Shown: piece by piece, positions 900 to 58,056 of the stretch
How positions within the stretch are numbered: the stretch's first letter is position 1
Layout: each line of letters opens with the position of its first letter
Position numbers and translations under genes: made by a program
Notes under the pieces: generated by a model
Databases searched by the model: none
Told to the model about the DNA's origin: nothing
What the model saw: the letters and a program-made list of their open reading frames with translations, nothing else
Origin: Nitrosopumilus sp.
GTDB taxonomy: Archaea > Thermoproteota > Nitrososphaeria > Nitrososphaerales > Nitrosopumilaceae
NCBI GenBank assembly: GCA_965197525.1
Contig: OZ240211.1
Location: forward strand, 512,001-576,000
DNA: 64,000 nt
Direction: 5' to 3'

Positions 900-1158
900 G
901 GTTCTGTAACATCTTCGAGACCCTTAGTGATGTTATCGCTGGCCTAAATATACCATTCAAACTATCCTCTAGGTTTAGGGATAGTCGAGATGACATAGAT
1001 GAAGCGAAGTCTGGCATTTTTGAGCCAGCGATGTTGGAATCTTGCAGATCAGTAATCTAGATAGTCGATATGTCAAAGTCGAGTGATAGAGAGAAAACAA
1101 TTTGTTAATAATACAACAAAATTTCTTTGTTGATAGGTGTCTATAACCAGACAGAACC
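900..1158 (+). mobile_element. Family-1 MITE (259 bp): IS6-like ends around the extreme 3' end of tnpB
   Basis: GGTTCTGT at 900 and ACAGAACC at 1151-1158. Interior is homologous to the tnpB 3' end (DVIAGLNIPFKLS, ctaggtttagggatagt, gtcgatatgtcaaagtc). No TSD (cgtttttt vs gtcatccc). Confidence 0.8.
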
Positions 1159-4419: not shown

Positions 4420-4797
4420 GGTTCTGTTGGGTTATCGAGATCTAAAACATAGAAATAAATACTTTTAATCATTACCATAATCATTGAACAGCACGAACAC
4501 GCAATATCCAGGATGCGGAAAGAAACTCCAAGAGGATATTATGCAACAACATCATAAATTATCGTGTACTAATTGTGGATTGTTCATTGATATGAACGCA
4601 TCTCACAAGCTGTCCCCTAGGTTTAGGGATAGTAGAGATGACATACATGAAGCGCAGTCTGGCACTTTTGAGTCAGCAATGTCGGAACCCAGCACACCGT
4701 CGGTAATCCGAATAGTCGATATGTCAAAGTCAGGTTATATGGAGAGGAACTTTGTTAATACACAACAAATTTCAGGTCTCGATAACCCAACAGAACC
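4420..4797 (+). mobile_element. Family-1 MITE (378 bp): IS6-like TIRs around tnpB 3' end (Zn finger, RuvC-III region, putative omega-RNA)
   Basis: Perfect 21-bp TIR GGTTCTGTTGGGTTATCGAGA (4420-4440 / 4777-4797). Interior translates to the TnpB C-terminus (YPGCGKKLQED...CTNCG...PRFRDSRDD). No TSD. Confidence 0.9.
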
Positions 4798-16307: not shown

Positions 16308-16373
16308 ACGTATTCTTCAGAGAACCCCGATAATATCTGCTACGCTAGCAAGTAATACGGTTTTATTTGAAAA

Positions 16374-17660
16374 GGTTTTGTGAAGTTATCGGGAGTTATA
16401 TGTCATCCCTAAAATGTATAAACCTCTGAACCGTAAGATATTCGTTGAGAGCGATAAAGTCAATATCACAGAAATATGCGCAAAACTCTGATCTAATGGA
16501 TATGATGGCTATATTCACAAAGATGGTCAATCATTGCATCAAGATAGGGTTGAAAGAAGACACTCACAATATGAAGAGGTTGTCCATGTTATGTTATCAT
16601 GAATTACGTAACTATGGCATTTTATCAACATACAAGATATGTGCAATATCAAGAGCTGCAGGCATATTATCAAACAGAAAACAATCAATCAAACGAGGTG
16701 TCAGAATAAGAGACCCAATAGTCAAAAATCCCTTTATGACAAACTGTTACGGCATAAAACACAACGGTGCACTACTAACAATCCCATACAAGAAACATAA
16801 CCCAATCAGCATTTTACTCAACGATCACACCCAAAAAATCCTATCTGATCCCGCCTTGACGGTGCGCTCGTTTTCATTGACTGCTCTCAACATCAGTCTT
16901 TGTGTTTCAAAAACAGTACAAGAGATAGAGTGCACCAAGAAGGTGGGAATAGACAGAAACCTAAGAAATGTGACGTGTGGGGACGAGGAAGAGGTGACAG
17001 TCTACAAGACAAACAAACTGTTATCCATAAAGGAGAACACAATACACGCCAGGGCAGGCTTCCACAGAAATGATCGCAGGAAGAAAAATCAGTTCTACAA
17101 GGAAAAACAGAGAAGACTGACTAACAGAGCAAAGCAGTACATCCACAGAATCTCAAAGGATATAGTAGACAACGCAGTCAAAAACAAGACTGCAATCGTC
17201 ATGGAAAACCTGAAAGGAATAAGAAAATTGTACCGAAAAGGAAACACTCAAGGTAACAAGTACAGACGTAGATTGAACGGGTGGCAATTCTACGAGTTAC
17301 AACGCCAAATAGAATACAAAGCCCAATGGGTCGGACTACCTCCAGTCGAGACAGTAGACCCAAGAAACACGAGCACGCAGTGTCCACAATGCGGAAAGAG
17401 ACTCCAAGAGGACATGCAACAACATCGTAAATTGTCGTGTAATAATTGCGGTTTGTTTATGGACAGGGACATCATCGCTGCCATGAACATATCACGCAAA
17501 CTGCCCCCTAGGTTTAGGGGTAGTAGAGGTGACATAGATGAAGCACAGTCCGGCACTTTTGAGCAGGCGATGACGGAACCCAGCACACCATTGGTAATCC
17601 GAATAGTCGATATGTCAAAGTCGAGTTATAGGGGTTAACTCCCGATAACTTCACAGAACC
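16374..17660 (+). mobile_element. Family-1 element copy A (1287 bp): tnpB between IS6-like 25-bp TIRs
   Basis: Left GGTTTTGTGAAGTTATCGGGAGTTA (16374-16398), right end reverse complement GGTTCTGTGAAGTTATCGGGAGTTA (17636-17660). Same length as copy B. No 8-bp TSD. Confidence 0.92.
16445..17638 (+). CDS. tnpB: TnpB RNA-guided endonuclease (397 aa), catalytic residues intact
   Basis: RuvC-I VGIDRN, RuvC-II IVMENL, CPQC/CNNC Zn finger, RuvC-III DRDIIAAMNI. Stop codon lies inside the right TIR. Confidence 0.95.
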   Translation: MRAIKSISQKYAQNSDLMDMMAIFTKMVNHCIKIGLKEDTHNMKRLSMLCYHELRNYGILSTYKICAISRAAGILSNRKQSIKRGVRIRDPIVKNPFMTNCYGIKHNGALLTIPYKKHNPISILLNDHTQKILSDPALTVRSFSLTALNISLCVSKTVQEIECTKKVGIDRNLRNVTCGDEEEVTVYKTNKLLSIKENTIHARAGFHRNDRRKKNQFYKEKQRRLTNRAKQYIHRISKDIVDNAVKNKTAIVMENLKGIRKLYRKGNTQGNKYRRRLNGWQFYELQRQIEYKAQWVGLPPVETVDPRNTSTQCPQCGKRLQEDMQQHRKLSCNNCGLFMDRDIIAAMNISRKLPPRFRGSRGDIDEAQSGTFEQAMTEPSTPLVIRIVDMSKSSYRG

Positions 17661-17688
17661 AAAAGAATAGTAAAAAAGATGAAGATTA

Positions 17689-24778: not shown

Positions 24779-26187
24779 GGTTCTGTCTAATCATAGTGAG
24801 ATAAAATCTAAACTCCGAAAAAAAGTTTTGTTGTAATATTAACAAAGTGTCTTTTTCCCATCAGTTGACTTTGACATATCGACTATTTGGATTACCGGTG
24901 TACAGGGTTCCAACATCGCTAACTCAAAAACATTAGACTTCGCTTCACTTATGCCAACTCTACTATCCCTAAACCTAGGGGACAGTTTGTGAGGTATATT
25001 TATAGCAGCAATAACGTCTCTGTCCATAAACAACCCACAATTATTGCACGACTTTTTACGATGGTGTTGCAAGTCCTCTTGGAGTTTCTTTCCGCATCTT
25101 GGACATTGCGAGCTCGTGTTTTTTGGGTCTACAAATTTTACTGGAAGCCCTACCCATTGGGCTTTGTATTGTATTTGTCTTTGAAATTCAAAGAATTGCC
25201 ATCCGTTTAATCTACGTCTGTACTTGTTACCTTGACCATTGCCTTTCTTGTATAATTTTCTTATTCCTTTTAGATCTTCTAGAATAATCATGGTTTTGTT
25301 TTTGACTGCTCGTTCTACAATATCTTTTGAGATTCTATGTATGTATTGTTTGGTTCTTTGAGACATTCTTCTCTGCTTTATCTTCCAGAACTGATCTTTC
25401 TTTCTACGGTCATTTCTATGAAATCCAGCTCTAGCGTGTATTGTATTTTCTTTAATTGATAGTAATTTATTTGTCTTGTATACTATAACTTTTTTCTCAT
25501 TCCCACAAGTGACATTTCTAAGATTTCTGTCTAATTCCTACCGGTACATTAGTACATTCTATTTCTTCAACTTTTTTTGAAACACAAAAACTGATACTTT
25601 TTTCATTCATAATAAATGATCTTATATTTAAATCAGGATTAGATAGTATTTTTTGAGTGTGATCATTTAATAATATGTTTATGGGGTTTCTATTTTTGTA
25701 TGGTATTGTCATTAAACTACCATTATGTTTGATACCATAACAATTTGTAATAAATAACTTTTTTACAACTAGGTCTCTTACTGTAACACCACGCTTTATT
25801 GACTGTTTTCTGTTAGATAGTATGCCAACAGCACGTGATATTGCATTTATTTTATATGAACCTAAAACATCATAGTCTCTAAATTCATGATAACAAAGTG
25901 GAGACAACTGTTTCAAACTATGTACGTCTTCTCTTAACCCTATTCTAATGGAACGATTTACCATTTTTATGAATATCTCCATCAACTCTTTTAGATCAGA
26001 ATTTGGTGTATGTTTCTGTGTTATTGATTTTAATGCCTTCATACTACTAGAACATGTTTTATTTTTTTAATAAAGGTACTTTTTTTGAAATTATTTTTAT
26101 TCTTTGCCACTTGATAATCCAATAAAACCATTATTTGTTATTGTAAATCTAGATAAAAATTTATCTCCCTATAAATAGACAGAACAC
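24779..26187 (-). mobile_element. Family-1 element copy C (1409 bp) with 8-bp TSD TGTATAGG
   Basis: TSD at 24771-24778 and 26188-26195. Ends GGTTCTGTCTAATCATAGTGAGATAAA vs G[T]GTTCTGTCTATTTATAGGGAGATAAA. Confidence 0.9.
24839..26042 (-). pseudogene. tnpB: tnpB split by a +1 frameshift at RuvC-I
   Basis: ORFs 25518-26042 and 24839-25366 join via GTAGGAAT[T]AGACAGAAAT (extra base near 25533). Removing it restores VGIDRNLRNVTCG. Confidence 0.9.
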
Positions 26188-36811: not shown

Positions 36812-37199
36812 GGTTCTGTGAAGTTATAGAGACCTGAAACATGGATGAATAAATATCGTTAATTATATCATAATTATGTTGAATCCAACAAACACGAACA
36901 CGCAATGTCCAGGATGCGGAAAGATATTCCAAGAGGACATGCAATACAGACGTAAAATATCGTGTACCAATTGTGGATTGTTCATGAACAGCAACAACAT
37001 TGTCATGAACACATCTCACAAGCTGTCCCCTAGATTTAGGGATAGTAGAGGTGACATACATGAAGCACAGACTAACACTTTTGAGTTAGCAATGTCGGAA
37101 CCCAGTACACAGGTAATCCGAATAGTCGATATGTCAAAGTCAAGTAATAGGAGAAACACACCTTGGTAAATCAACGGGTACCTATAACTTCACAGAACC
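36812..37199 (+). mobile_element. Family-1 MITE (388 bp), same subfamily as 4420-4797
   Basis: Perfect 18-bp TIR GGTTCTGTGAAGTTATAG. Interior is the tnpB 3' end (CPGC...CTNC...PRFRDSRGD). No TSD. Confidence 0.9.
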
Positions 37200-54451: not shown

Positions 54452-55435
54452 TTATTTGAAGAGTGTCACTGCCAAATACAATACATAGCAAGCAGATATG
54501 CAAATTCCCATCATTCTATTAATGATTCCGGTTTTCAAGGCAACTAACAGTGAAAGACTAAAGATGATCATGATTGCATAGTCAATGTATACATCAGGGG
54601 TGATAGCCACACTGCTAAGAACAGCACCAATGCCCATAATCATTAAAATGTTGTATATGTTACTGCCAATTATATTGCCAATACCAATATCAGTATGGCC
54701 TTTTCTAATTGCAATGATTGATGTTATTAGTTCTGGAAGGGATGTTCCAATTGCAATGACAGTCAATCCAATTATCTTCTCAGATAATCCAAACTCTTGA
54801 GCTAATACTATAGCATTATCAACGGTAAGTATTGCACCCACATACAGCAAAACTATGCCCAGGATTAGCAGTCCTACAGATTTAAGATAAAAATTATTTT
54901 TGGTAGTGGTCGCTTCTTTTTCTTCTTCTTTTTCTTCTTTCTCCACTTCTTCTTCTTCTTGTTTTTTGGTTTTTTCTCTATGTTTTATTATATCACGACA
55001 TGTGTAAAATGTAAACACACCTAATCCAGCTAGCAGTATGCCACCGTCATAGTAAGAGATTTCACCGTCGATGGAGACTAATACAAGCAGGAGTGAAACA
55101 CCCAGCATTATCGGAATTTCTTTTCGTAAGATAGACTTACTGACTGCAAGAGGAATAACTATTGCAGATATTGCAATGACCATTCCAATATTTGATATAT
55201 TACTCCCAATCACATTTCCAAGAATGATTGCACTATGCTCATTTATGGCAGCCACAACACTAGATGCAAGTTCTGGAGTAGAGGTGCCATAAGCTACAAC
55301 AGTCATTCCAATGATAATATTGCTTATGTGAAATTTCTTTGCGATTGCAACGCCACCGTTAACTAACCAATTACCACCAAAACACAACAGAGTCAGACCC
55401 ACTATGGTAAGTACTGCGCTTGTTAAAACTTCCAC
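54452..55435 (-). CDS. Ca2+/Na+ antiporter (CaCA/YrbG family)
   Basis: Duplicated GTSxPEL...GNxIGSN alpha repeats. Confidence 0.92.
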   Translation of the reverse strand: MEVLTSAVLTIVGLTLLCFGGNWLVNGGVAIAKKFHISNIIIGMTVVAYGTSTPELASSVVAAINEHSAIILGNVIGSNISNIGMVIAISAIVIPLAVSKSILRKEIPIMLGVSLLLVLVSIDGEISYYDGGILLAGLGVFTFYTCRDIIKHREKTKKQEEEEVEKEEKEEEKEATTTKNNFYLKSVGLLILGIVLLYVGAILTVDNAIVLAQEFGLSEKIIGLTVIAIGTSLPELITSIIAIRKGHTDIGIGNIIGSNIYNILMIMGIGAVLSSVAITPDVYIDYAIMIIFSLSLLVALKTGIINRMMGICISACYVLYLAVTLFK

Positions 55436-55477
55436 AAAGAAATTTCAGAGAAGGGTGGTTTAAAGGAAATGATCTAT

Positions 55478-56764
55478 GGTTCTGTGAAGTTATCAGGAGT
55501 TAACCCCTATAACTCGACTTTGACATATCGACTATTCGGATTACCAATGGTGTGCTGGGTTCCGTCATCGCAGGCTCAAAAGTGCCAGACTGTGCTTCAC
55601 ATATGTCACCTCTACTACCCCTAAACCTAGGGGGCAGTTTGCGTGATATGTTCATGGCAGCGATAATATCCCTATCCATAAACAAACCGCAATTATTACA
55701 CGACAATTTACGATGTTGTTGCATGTCCTCTTGGAGTCTCTTTCCGCATTGTGGACACTGCGTGCTCGTGTTTCTTGGGTCTACTATCTCGACTGGAGGT
55801 AGTCCGACCCATTGGGCTTTGTATTCTATTTGGCGTTGTAACTCGTAGAATTGCCACCCGTTCAATCTACGTCTGTACTTGTTACCTTGAGTGTTTCCTT
55901 TTCGGTACAATTTTCTTATTCCTTTCAGGTTTTCCATGACGATTGCAGTCTTGTTTTTGACTGCGTTGTCTACTATATCCTTTGAGATTCTGTGGATGTA
56001 CTGCTTTGCTCTGTTAGTCAGTCTTCTCTGTTTTTCCTTGTAGAACTGATTTTTCTTCCTGCGATCATTTCTGTGGAAGCCTGCCCTGGCGTGTATTGTG
56101 TTCTCCTTTATGGATAACAGTTTGTTTGTCTTGTAGACTGTCACCTCTTTCTCGTTCCCGCACGTCACATTTCTTAGGTTTCTGTCTATTCCCACTTTCT
56201 TGGTGCACTCTATCTCTTGTACTGTTTTTGAAACACAAAGACTGATGTTCAGAGCAGTCAATGAAAACGAGCGCACCGTCAAGGCAGGATCAGATAGGAT
56301 TTTTTGGGTGTGATCGTTGAGTAAAATGTTGATTGGGTTATGTTTCTTGTATGGGATTGTTAATAGTGCACCGTTGTGTTTTATGCCGTAACAGTTTGTC
56401 ATAAAGGGATTTTTGACTATTGGGTCTCTTATTCTGACACCTCGTTTGATTGATTGTTTTCTGTTTGATAATATGCCTGCAGCTCTTGATATTGCACATA
56501 TCTTGTATGTTGATAAAATGCCATAGTTACGTAATTCATGATAACATAACATGGACAACCTCTTCATATTGTGAGTGTCTTCTTTCAACCCTATCTTGAT
56601 GCAATGATTGACCATCTTTGTGAATATATCCATCATATCCATTAGATCAGAGTTCGGCGTATATTTCTGTGATATTGACTTTATCGCTTTCAACGAATAT
56701 CTTACGGTTTAGAGGTTATACATTTTAGGAATTGACATATAACTCACGATAACTTGACAGAACC
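55478..56764 (-). mobile_element. Family-1 element copy B (1287 bp) with 8-bp TSD TGATCTAT
   Basis: 25-bp TIRs GGTTCTGTGAAGTTATCAGGAGTTA / GGTTCTGTCAAGTTATCGTGAGTTA. TSD at 55470-55477 and 56765-56772. Confidence 0.95.
55500..56693 (-). CDS. tnpB: TnpB RNA-guided endonuclease (397 aa), near-identical to copy A
   Basis: Same RuvC-I/II/III and Zn-finger motifs. Only a few substitutions vs 16445-17638. Confidence 0.95.
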   Translation of the reverse strand: MKAIKSISQKYTPNSDLMDMMDIFTKMVNHCIKIGLKEDTHNMKRLSMLCYHELRNYGILSTYKICAISRAAGILSNRKQSIKRGVRIRDPIVKNPFMTNCYGIKHNGALLTIPYKKHNPINILLNDHTQKILSDPALTVRSFSLTALNISLCVSKTVQEIECTKKVGIDRNLRNVTCGNEKEVTVYKTNKLLSIKENTIHARAGFHRNDRRKKNQFYKEKQRRLTNRAKQYIHRISKDIVDNAVKNKTAIVMENLKGIRKLYRKGNTQGNKYRRRLNGWQFYELQRQIEYKAQWVGLPPVEIVDPRNTSTQCPQCGKRLQEDMQQHRKLSCNNCGLFMDRDIIAAMNISRKLPPRFRGSRGDICEAQSGTFEPAMTEPSTPLVIRIVDMSKSSYRG

Positions 56765-56836
56765 TGATCTATCAAATTTTACAATTATAGAGAAAAAGAT
56801 GATCGTTTTGCAGTACAGTCTATTTGTTTTATACGA

Positions 56837-57187
56837 TTACAAAGTATTTTTATTGATAAAGAGATTCAGCATTGTTCTTCCTCTTTCCGTTAACTCGTAC
56901 ATTACATTTAGCCCTCTTGATTCCTTTCTAATAAAATTGTAATCTACACATAAATGCAGGTAATTTAAAAACGATCTCTTCATTCGAATCTTTGATTTTT
57001 GATACAAATCACTAAATGTCATAGGGCTTGTTTTAAGCTGATACAGCAATTTCAACAATGACAGTGTGCTATAATCCCTCGTCTTTGCCTTTATTGCATC
57101 AAGGATTTGCTCATCTTTTTTGATTATGAAATCGTCGAATTGCTCTGCCACATCTAGCGGGAGATATGTCAATCTTGCTTTTGGCAT
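56837..57187 (-). CDS. Winged-HTH DNA-binding protein
   Basis: MTFSDLYQKSK...FLNYL...YELTERG. Confidence 0.8.
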   Translation of the reverse strand: MPKARLTYLPLDVAEQFDDFIIKKDEQILDAIKAKTRDYSTLSLLKLLYQLKTSPMTFSDLYQKSKIRMKRSFLNYLHLCVDYNFIRKESRGLNVMYELTERGRTMLNLFINKNTL

Positions 57188-57330
57188 ACCGTATAGTACG
57201 GTACTATACCTTATTAATCTTTAGTTGTGTGGCAGCAGGATAGATAATTTAACGTTTCACTAAAAAAGATTAATGCGCGTATGCCAGAGTCAAAGTATAT
57301 AGTAGTTAATAGAATGAATCAGCGTAACAC

Positions 57331-58056
57331 ATGCAAGACAATTTTCCAGAAGCACAAGTATTTGAGATTAAAGAGAGGGAATTGAGCAGTCCAATAATCT
57401 TTGCAGGATTTGTTGGTGCAGGGCTAGTAGGACCTGTTGCAATAAATCACATCATTACACAATTAAAGATGGAAGAGATAGCAGTGATGAGATCAAGGCA
57501 TCTTCCTCCATCAACGGTATTTATGAGAGGAAGATTACGTCACCCATTTAGATTCTATGCAAATAAGGAAGGAACGGTATGCGCAATAGTCTGCGAGATA
57601 ACATTGAGACTAGAGGGATTATATTCGTTGGTTGCATCAATCTTGGACTGGGCAGAACAGAACGGATCAAAAGAGATCGTAATCTTGGATGGAGTTGCAA
57701 GTGATGAGCATGACGACAAGGCATACTGTGCGGCAGAAGAAGACCTAGTTAGAACGATGGCAGACAAAGACATCAGCATGATTCCACAAGGATTCATCAC
57801 AGGAATTCCGGGAGGGATACTAAATGAGTGTCTTGTAAGAAAGATTCAAGGATTAACGCTTTTGGCAAAAGCAAACAAAATGTACCCTGACTCTGCAGCA
57901 GCTGCCACGTTAATTGAAGCATTAAACCGATTCTACGATATGGATATAGATACATCAGAACTTCAGAAAGACAGCGAACAGATTAGTTCTGACTTTAGCG
58001 AACTGTCCCAGAAATATGTAGAGCATAGAGAAGAGATAGCTGGAATGTACATGTAA
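57331..58056 (+). CDS. PAC2-family proteasome assembly chaperone
   Basis: GFVGAGLVG, ILDG, PDSAAAA. Confidence 0.88.
   Translation: MQDNFPEAQVFEIKERELSSPIIFAGFVGAGLVGPVAINHIITQLKMEEIAVMRSRHLPPSTVFMRGRLRHPFRFYANKEGTVCAIVCEITLRLEGLYSLVASILDWAEQNGSKEIVILDGVASDEHDDKAYCAAEEDLVRTMADKDISMIPQGFITGIPGGILNECLVRKIQGLTLLAKANKMYPDSAAAATLIEALNRFYDMDIDTSELQKDSEQISSDFSELSQKYVEHREEIAGMYM

Follow-up and report, generated by a model that had tools for sequence, protein, structure and literature searches.

A covarying omega-RNA scaffold at the 3′ end of tnpB in IS6-like transposons of Nitrosopumilus, with a guide predicted to lie in the host flank

Members of the IS200/IS605 family rely on a Y1 HUH transposase, TnpA, encoded in cis or elsewhere in the genome, and have neither inverted repeats nor direct repeats of the flank (TSDs). 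IS605 elements show restorative homing, and IS6/IS26-like elements move by replicative or cointegrate transposition. In ISDra2, the guide of the TnpB RNA is preceded by stem 4 and then by a short strand (positions -6 to -2) that forms a pseudoknot with nucleotides beside stem 1 (pairs between -5 to -3 and -103 to -105); as is established for TnpB, the target has a TAM immediately on its 5′ side (PMC10097598). TnpB is also found with DDE transposases. Altae-Tran et al. (2023) describe six DDE-associated TnpB branches with inverted terminal repeats as well as solo TnpBs with matching ends; the 3′ end of tnpB is no more than 250 bp from the end of the element there, which they take as “suggesting related mechanisms” for the guides (PMC10691335). 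A 2026 review names the DDE partners of TnpB as ISL2, IS630 and IS1031, and reads the 5′ TSD of Fanzor elements as part of the TAM because this TSD is sequence-specific, for example TA (PMC13565253). IS6/IS26 elements are recognised by ends that start with GG and carry G at position 7, together with a TSD of 8 bp, and the archaeal members are distant from IS26 (PMC6807381). In the literature found, including the main text of PMC10691335, no IS6-like partner of TnpB is named, and there is no description of an RNA structure for DDE-associated TnpBs, of a stem built from the terminal repeat or of a TAM that lies beyond a TSD of variable sequence.

The locus described here lies in a Nitrosopumilus genome consisting of a single contig (2.21 Mb, 39.6% GC, 99% complete). 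The stretch analysed, called the window below, comprises 64,000 nucleotides (OZ240211.1, positions 512,001 to 576,000), and all window coordinates are counted from its first base. Element A (16374-17660, plus strand, 1287 bp), whose boundaries were drawn from about 50 copies in the genome, is a non-autonomous TnpB/omega-RNA element with IS6-like ends. It is bordered by 25-bp inverted repeats, the left one at 16374-16398 (plus strand; GGTTTTGTGAAG..., of the form GGTT(T/C)TGTGAAG...) and the right one at 17636-17660 (plus strand; ...CTTCACAGAACC), which are complementary at 24 of 25 nt. The tnpB frame between them (16445-17638, plus strand, 397 aa) matches Pfam Cas12f1-like_TNB (7e-21) and OrfB_IS605, and the region of interest, 17500-17660, is its 3′ end. 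Alignment with relatives showed the RuvC residues D170/E254/D342 and the CxxC...CxxC zinc finger to be intact, and the motifs GIDRN (D170), VMENL (E254) and MDRD (D340/D342) and four Cys are common to the relatives. The protein is a TnpB, as it has the D-E-D RuvC-like triad and, between RuvC-II and RuvC-III, a zinc finger. The 8-mers flanking element A differ (TTTGAAAA on the left, AAAAGAAT on the right), so that it is without a matching TSD, and a TAM-like TTA is found 8 bp upstream of its left end (16363-16365, plus strand).

Genome-wide, the family numbers about 50 copies or fragments, which fall into several subfamilies (76-99% identity). The right terminus ACAGAACC is found in all copies, and the left ends read GGTTCTGT. 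TSDs of 8 bp are seen at both ends in 28 copies and matching TSDs are absent in 18 of 46, and the catalytic triad is intact in the 33 copies whose frame is open over 380 aa or more. As the original prediction had stated, six copies are in the window, and a covariance model of the scaffold described below finds exactly those six (E 1e-31 to 1e-34; all were in its training set). Copy B (55478-56764, minus strand) has an intact 397-aa tnpB, the TSD ATAGATCA and TTG before the left TSD, and copy C (24779-26187, minus strand) is decayed, with tnpB split into ORFs of 174 and 175 aa, the TSD CCTATACA, TTA before the TSD and a run of seven T in the hairpin called H6 below. Copy D (36812-37199, plus strand) is a derivative of 388 bp, and copies E (4420-4797, plus strand) and F (900-1158, plus strand) are scaffold-only derivatives of 378 and 259 bp. 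These three retain both inverted repeats and the omega-RNA scaffold and have no tnpB, and four further short derivatives with perfect TSDs (208-497 bp) lie outside the window. Such tnpB-less derivatives could supply extra guides in trans for the TnpB of full-length copies.

Some copies lie at rearranged or repeatedly used sites. A search for the empty site of copy B in 10 same-genus genomes found its flanks adjoining but in inverted relative orientation, and no clean empty site; the flanks (window 54800-57450) are adjacent but inverted in at least 6 of the 10 (genomes G123-G130). This inversion in the relatives points to a rearrangement in the present genome with a breakpoint at or near the site, despite the perfect TSD of copy B. 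In a related Nitrosopumilus MAG (OZ245003.1), the 8-mers flanking two copies (L010 and L013) are swapped reciprocally, TAGAAACT/TTATGTTA versus TTATGTTA/TAGAAACT, which is the signature of an inversion via recombination between two inverted copies. The same route may have led to the missing TSD match in the 18 of 46 copies of this genome, and for replicative or cointegrate transposition the missing matches and the swapped flanks are only indirect hints. Elsewhere in the genome (G000:C1, about 816920-817000), the left flank of a full copy at 817000 contains two solitary right-end fragments (...CCCGACAGAACC and ...GTTACAGAACC), both no more than 50 bp upstream of the copy; this points to repeated insertion or decay at the site.

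Beyond this genome, elements built in this way were found in other Nitrosopumilus MAGs, in a sponge-associated Thaumarchaeote, in Nitrososphaerales, in Bathyarchaeota and in a Sysuiplasma MAG, and also in soil and sediment metagenomes. Three metagenomic loci (L124, L139 and L142, positions 1-66) open with the cut-off remainder of a further scaffold match, about 640 bp before tnpB begins, indicating that the elements stand close together in tandem there. In one Nitrososphaerales MAG (L028), Ala replaces the RuvC-II glutamate (FADIK versus xExL) and the scaffold still scores 96 bits; judged from this residue, the TnpB is probably inactivated.

The TnpB elements are non-autonomous, because they encode no transposase; in particular, no IS240/IS6-type DDE transposase is encoded inside them. 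A search of the 99%-complete single-contig genome for a Y1 TnpA (PF01797) gave no match and, together with the 25-bp inverted repeats and 8-bp TSDs, this sets the elements outside the IS200/IS605 family. As in IS6/IS26, their GGTTCTGT ends begin with GG (positions 1-2) and have a further G at position 7, and the TSD measures 8 bp; we call the ends IS6-like because the archaeal members are only distantly related to IS26. Eight IS240-type DDE matches are present in the genome. One belongs to a 1970-bp element that has the same terminal sequence as the TnpB elements, an 8-bp TSD of its own and a 378-aa transposase matching PF13610 (DDE_Tnp_IS240). For the remaining IS240-type DDE loci of the genome, the repeat finder mostly gave no clear inverted repeats. 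Judged from the shared ends, a DDE transposase encoded elsewhere most likely mobilises the TnpB elements in trans. Neither the scaffold nor, where tested, tnpB was found at 37 IS240/IS6-type DDE transposase loci, seven of which are the other IS240-type hits of this genome. An 851-bp element (G000:C1:883991-884841) has an inverted repeat of the same type (GGTTCTGTAACATTATCGGG) and a perfect 8-bp TSD (TATTACTG), and is without tnpB, scaffold and transposase. Related genomes contain autonomous IS6-like elements of 2.3-2.9 kb (L094, L096, L098, L099, L100, L103 and L105), which are about 1.2-1.8 kb longer than the transposase gene needs, and the extra content is not tnpB.

Inspection of the 3′ end of tnpB in element A revealed a conserved core of five helices, H1-H5, at 17500-17617 on the plus strand. 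H1 is a hairpin (17500-17524) with the loop GGTT at 17511-17514, and H3 is a long-range helix in which TGACATA (17530-17536) pairs with TATGTCA (17611-17617). H2 (17573-17602; 17573-77 with 17598-17602) surrounds the small H5 (17580-81 with 17593-94), and H4 (17548-17568) is a hairpin insertion specific to the Nitrosopumilus clade that is missing in distant relatives. H1, H2 and H3 had been proposed in the original prediction as helices with compensatory changes among the six copies, and the sequences quoted for them were found in their places, H4 and H5 being additional. For H2, TCGGA/TCCGA is present in copies D and E and TTGGA/TCCAA in copy C, but copy A reads ACGGA/TCCGA, with A.A as the outer pair.

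The structure was evaluated on a first alignment of 38 sequences (25 copies from this genome and 13 relatives, down to 36% protein identity). In H1-H5, 90.9% of cells were paired, compared with 77.6% after shuffling (0 of 500 shuffles reached the observed value) and 29-40% with slid partners, and 23 of the 30 pairs had changed on both sides. The paired fraction and the number of doubly changed pairs were 87% and 8 of 9 for H1, 96.6% and 6 of 7 for H3, and 93.8% and 5 of 6 for H4; 89% of cells were paired in H2 and 90% in H5. RNAalifold recovered H1 and H3 from this alignment unaided. An independent set of 58 distinct metagenomic relatives (42-54% protein identity), none of which was used for defining the structure, gave a similar result: 94.1% of cells were paired versus 87.0% after shuffling and 28-45% with slid partners, 27 of 42 pairs were doubly changed, H1 was 96.5% paired, and double changes were found in both H2 and H5. 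The covariance model built from the 38-sequence alignment was run on 80 independent metagenomic loci and placed the scaffold at the 3′ end of tnpB in 78 of them; it gave no match on bacterial TnpB loci. Rfam at gathering thresholds and a tRNA scan returned nothing in the window. A structured RNA that overlaps the tnpB 3′ end and is conserved with the protein is what characterizes TnpB omega RNAs, and the proposal of an omega-RNA-like scaffold at this place is well supported by covariation in two sets. We conclude from these alignments that the covariation is genuine and that the scaffold goes with the TnpB nuclease of an IS6-like transposon.

The stretch that follows the scaffold had been described as 13 to about 60 divergent nucleotides and as the seat of a putative guide. 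Among the copies of this genome, conservation does stop at ...GTCGATATGTCAAAGTC; the stretch from there to the element end is 36-102 nt, however, and has the right inverted repeat as its pairing partner. Of the 48 distinct tails, nearly all fold into a hairpin of variable length, H6 (17620-17654, plus strand), with GTC(R)AGT... at the start of the stretch paired to the inner portion of that repeat. The “divergent” segment is thus the 5′ arm and the repeat the 3′ arm, and the terminal AGAACC (17655-17660, plus strand) is left single-stranded 3′ of H6. The tnpB stop codon lies inside the loop. The length differences are apical and the base of the stem is kept. When the copies of this genome were placed in register from the stem base, pairing of the closing stem was above all 2000 shuffles (0 of 2000 reached it). 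In the 58 metagenomic relatives, all 8 closing pairs were doubly changed and 87.6% of cells were paired; one pair of columns, for example, is C-G in 42 sequences and G-C in 12. This pairing with compensatory changes indicates that the post-scaffold stretch is a helix and not a free guide.

The strand-specific signal for H6 as RNA is weak or ambiguous, and H6 could be a feature at the DNA level. Sense folds were more stable than antisense folds in 31 of 48 tails (P = 0.03, the tails being related to each other), and G.U exceeded A.C (34 versus 16) only when one conserved C.A pair was set aside. Runs of five to seven T occur inside H6 in some decayed copies, where they might terminate archaeal transcription. 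A run of T5 or longer was found in the tails of 1 of 33 intact and 4 of 17 broken or short copies; this difference falls short of significance, and runs of T4-T5 are tolerated within the scaffold itself.

The bases before the left TSD follow a one-sided pattern. In the orientation of tnpB, position -2 is T and position -1 is A or G in all 28 copies with TSDs (28/28 each), and the third base back is T or A in 27 of 28; we refer to this motif as TTR. With a genome-wide background of 14.5% for T[AG], the probability of 28/28 is about 3e-24. At the mirror position on the right side, the motif was found in 5 of the 28. It precedes the left end in 12 of 18 copies without matching TSDs and is present at all six window copies. 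In other genomes, all eight TSD-bearing loci have it, including a Bathyarchaeota locus at 42% protein identity, and it was read by eye in one more (L030); 9 of 9 metagenomic loci have it on the left, against 2 of 9 on the mirror side. A Sysuiplasma relative at 36% protein identity has GAT, not TTR. Eight TnpB-free IS6-like elements, which have a transposase and neither tnpB nor scaffold, showed the motif on 2 of 16 sides, which is at the background level. The 851-bp tnpB-free element of this genome has it on one of two sides.

At an empty site, the order is TTR, the 8 bp that become the TSD, and the right flank. An RNA leaving the element through ACAGAACC would carry at its 3′ end exactly the TSD and the right flank, and for a guide that starts at the first base beyond the element, the TAM must sit where the one-sided TTR sits. 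We favour, with a probability of roughly three in four, an external guide made of TSD and host flank on an RNA that reads through the right repeat. This read-through RNA is the outcome that the original prediction had itself set against its element-internal guide, and what speaks for it is the geometry of motif, TSD and terminus. Under the favoured reading, the region would be the omega RNA of a TnpB nuclease that is cargo between IS6-like terminal inverted repeats, with the order core (H1-H5, 17500-17617), H6 with the right repeat as its 3′ arm, AGAACC and host DNA. The guide would comprise the 8-bp TSD and about 8-12 nt of right flank; for copy A, the predicted guide is 17661-17680 (plus strand).

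The last nucleotides before this predicted guide may form a pseudoknot. GAACC, the candidate 3′ strand within AGAACC, is complementary to the H1 loop GGTT(T/C), which is found in all clades, and 98.3% of cells are pairable. Both sides are nearly invariant and show no covariation beyond isolated cases, which are one compensatory change (L027, AGTTC with GAACT), one wobble (L158) and two A.C combinations (L123 and L126). The H1 loop encodes an Arg codon whose third position is G in 58 of 58 relatives, and the sole other GAACC in the scaffold is already taken by the covariation-supported H2 and H5. By analogy with ISDra2, a pseudoknot of the H1 loop with GAACC directly 5′ of the guide is plausible.

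Three other explanations were weighed against the external guide. The helices might be by-products of coding constraint in the C-terminal tail of TnpB rather than RNA structure, given that the ORF covers H1-H5 and that a conserved Arg-Phe is encoded by the H1 loop. We give this hardly any credence: double compensatory changes in 23 of 30 and 27 of 42 pairs are far above the shuffled and slid controls, the scaffold is kept in short derivatives that have lost tnpB, and the third position of the Arg codon in the loop is held constant as well. The element-internal guide, on which the omega RNA would end 16-20 nt after ...AAAGTC and a subfamily-specific guide would travel with the element and be directed not at the empty site but, for instance, at another element, a virus or the element's own ends, is attractive but has to be corrected as unsupported, and we consider it very improbable. 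That conservation among the copies of this genome stops at AAAGTC agrees with it, as does the position of the H3 3′ strand, which ends 7 nt before this end-point and could be a guide-adjacent pseudoknot of ISDra2-like topology. The segment is, however, structured against the right repeat with compensatory changes, and its likeness to the left repeat is broken by an indel and mismatches. Searches of the genome with post-scaffold 16-mers in two registers (after AAA and after AAAGTC) found scattered hits with two mismatches, no plausible target among them, and at least one exact match, at about 418715. An internal guide also leaves unexplained why TTR stands on one side only and exactly 8 bp from the left end, a position that a flank guide fits.

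It is unlikely, though less so than either of these, that TnpB binds a real RNA while H6 and the terminus serve only as DNA for transposase binding, TTR being a preference of the transposase or transpososome and the flank providing no guide. The 3′ arm must be conserved for the transposase regardless and the strand-specific (G.U) evidence is weak, both of which suit this explanation, but the left end has no equivalent hairpin, and TnpB-free IS6-like elements, including a same-ended one in this genome, do not have the motif. DDE transposases normally have symmetric target preferences, whereas the mirror side here is at background. The conservation of the TnpB triad in 33 copies with frames of at least 380 aa is also against it. 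On the other side, archaeal IS6-like transposases are without experimental study (PMC6807381).

Returning to the external guide, the unoccupied allele would contain a match to the guide preceded by 5′-(T/A)T(A/G), the putative TAM. With a TAM next to the empty site, TnpB could cut empty sites and the occupied locus would be spared: the right junction would have ACC in the place of the TAM, and the left junction would match only 8 nt of the guide. A transposase that has no visible target preference does not by itself account for TAM adjacency of 100%; two possible routes are the survival of TAM-adjacent insertions by TnpB-driven copying into empty alleles, and TnpB-assisted target choice. Since the transposase apparently does not choose TTR, this adjacency would mean that the nuclease shapes the survival or the location of insertions. 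We suggest, tentatively and with more doubt than confidence, that the terminal 20-25 bp are dual-coded, as the transposase site in DNA and as the last stem and pseudoknot strand in RNA, and that TnpB decides which insertions land or persist. If so, the family would act as a filter or drive that is guided by RNA and linked to a DDE transposon, unlike the restorative homing of IS605. If the RNA reads through the repeat, a TnpB guide system would be transferable to a DDE transposon whose TSD varies; this TSD would then be the TAM-proximal seed of the guide, and the TAM would necessarily lie outside it. The family would also provide an archaeal TnpB that is compact, whose scaffold is defined and whose predicted TAM is short and T-rich.

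Like the omega RNA (reRNA) of ISDra2-type IS200/IS605 elements, the present RNA overlaps the tnpB 3′ end and the right element end and has a scaffold of several stems; it would likewise take its guide from the DNA just beyond the right end, with the TAM at the left flank, and have a stem and a short candidate pseudoknot strand before the guide. Unlike the ISDra2 type, there is no Y1 TnpA, no subterminal DNA hairpin and no fixed target site; instead there are DDE-type inverted repeats, a last stem built from the repeat, and an 8-bp TSD that would form the first 8 nt of the guide. Fanzor1 omega RNAs of eukaryotic TIR transposons are similar in that an RNA-guided TnpB homologue is carried by TSD-making DDE transposons and the target is defined at the insertion site (PMC13565253), but here the TSD is variable and would lie inside the guide, and the TAM would be outside the TSD. 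With IS6/IS26 the elements share ends that start with GG, G at position 7, a TSD of 8 bp and a partner transposase that matches DDE_Tnp_IS240 (PMC6807381); they differ in that this partner has 378 aa with an N-terminal Cys/His-rich extension and the TnpB elements themselves carry no transposase. There is also a likeness in architecture to the DDE-associated and solo TnpBs, where TnpB lies between inverted terminal repeats, the solo ones are presumed to be mobilised in trans, and the 3′ end of tnpB is placed in the same way (PMC10691335). The partners named for these are IS630, ISL2 and IS1031, whereas here the probable partner is IS6-like. We regard the family as a variant of the DDE-associated TnpBs published in 2023.
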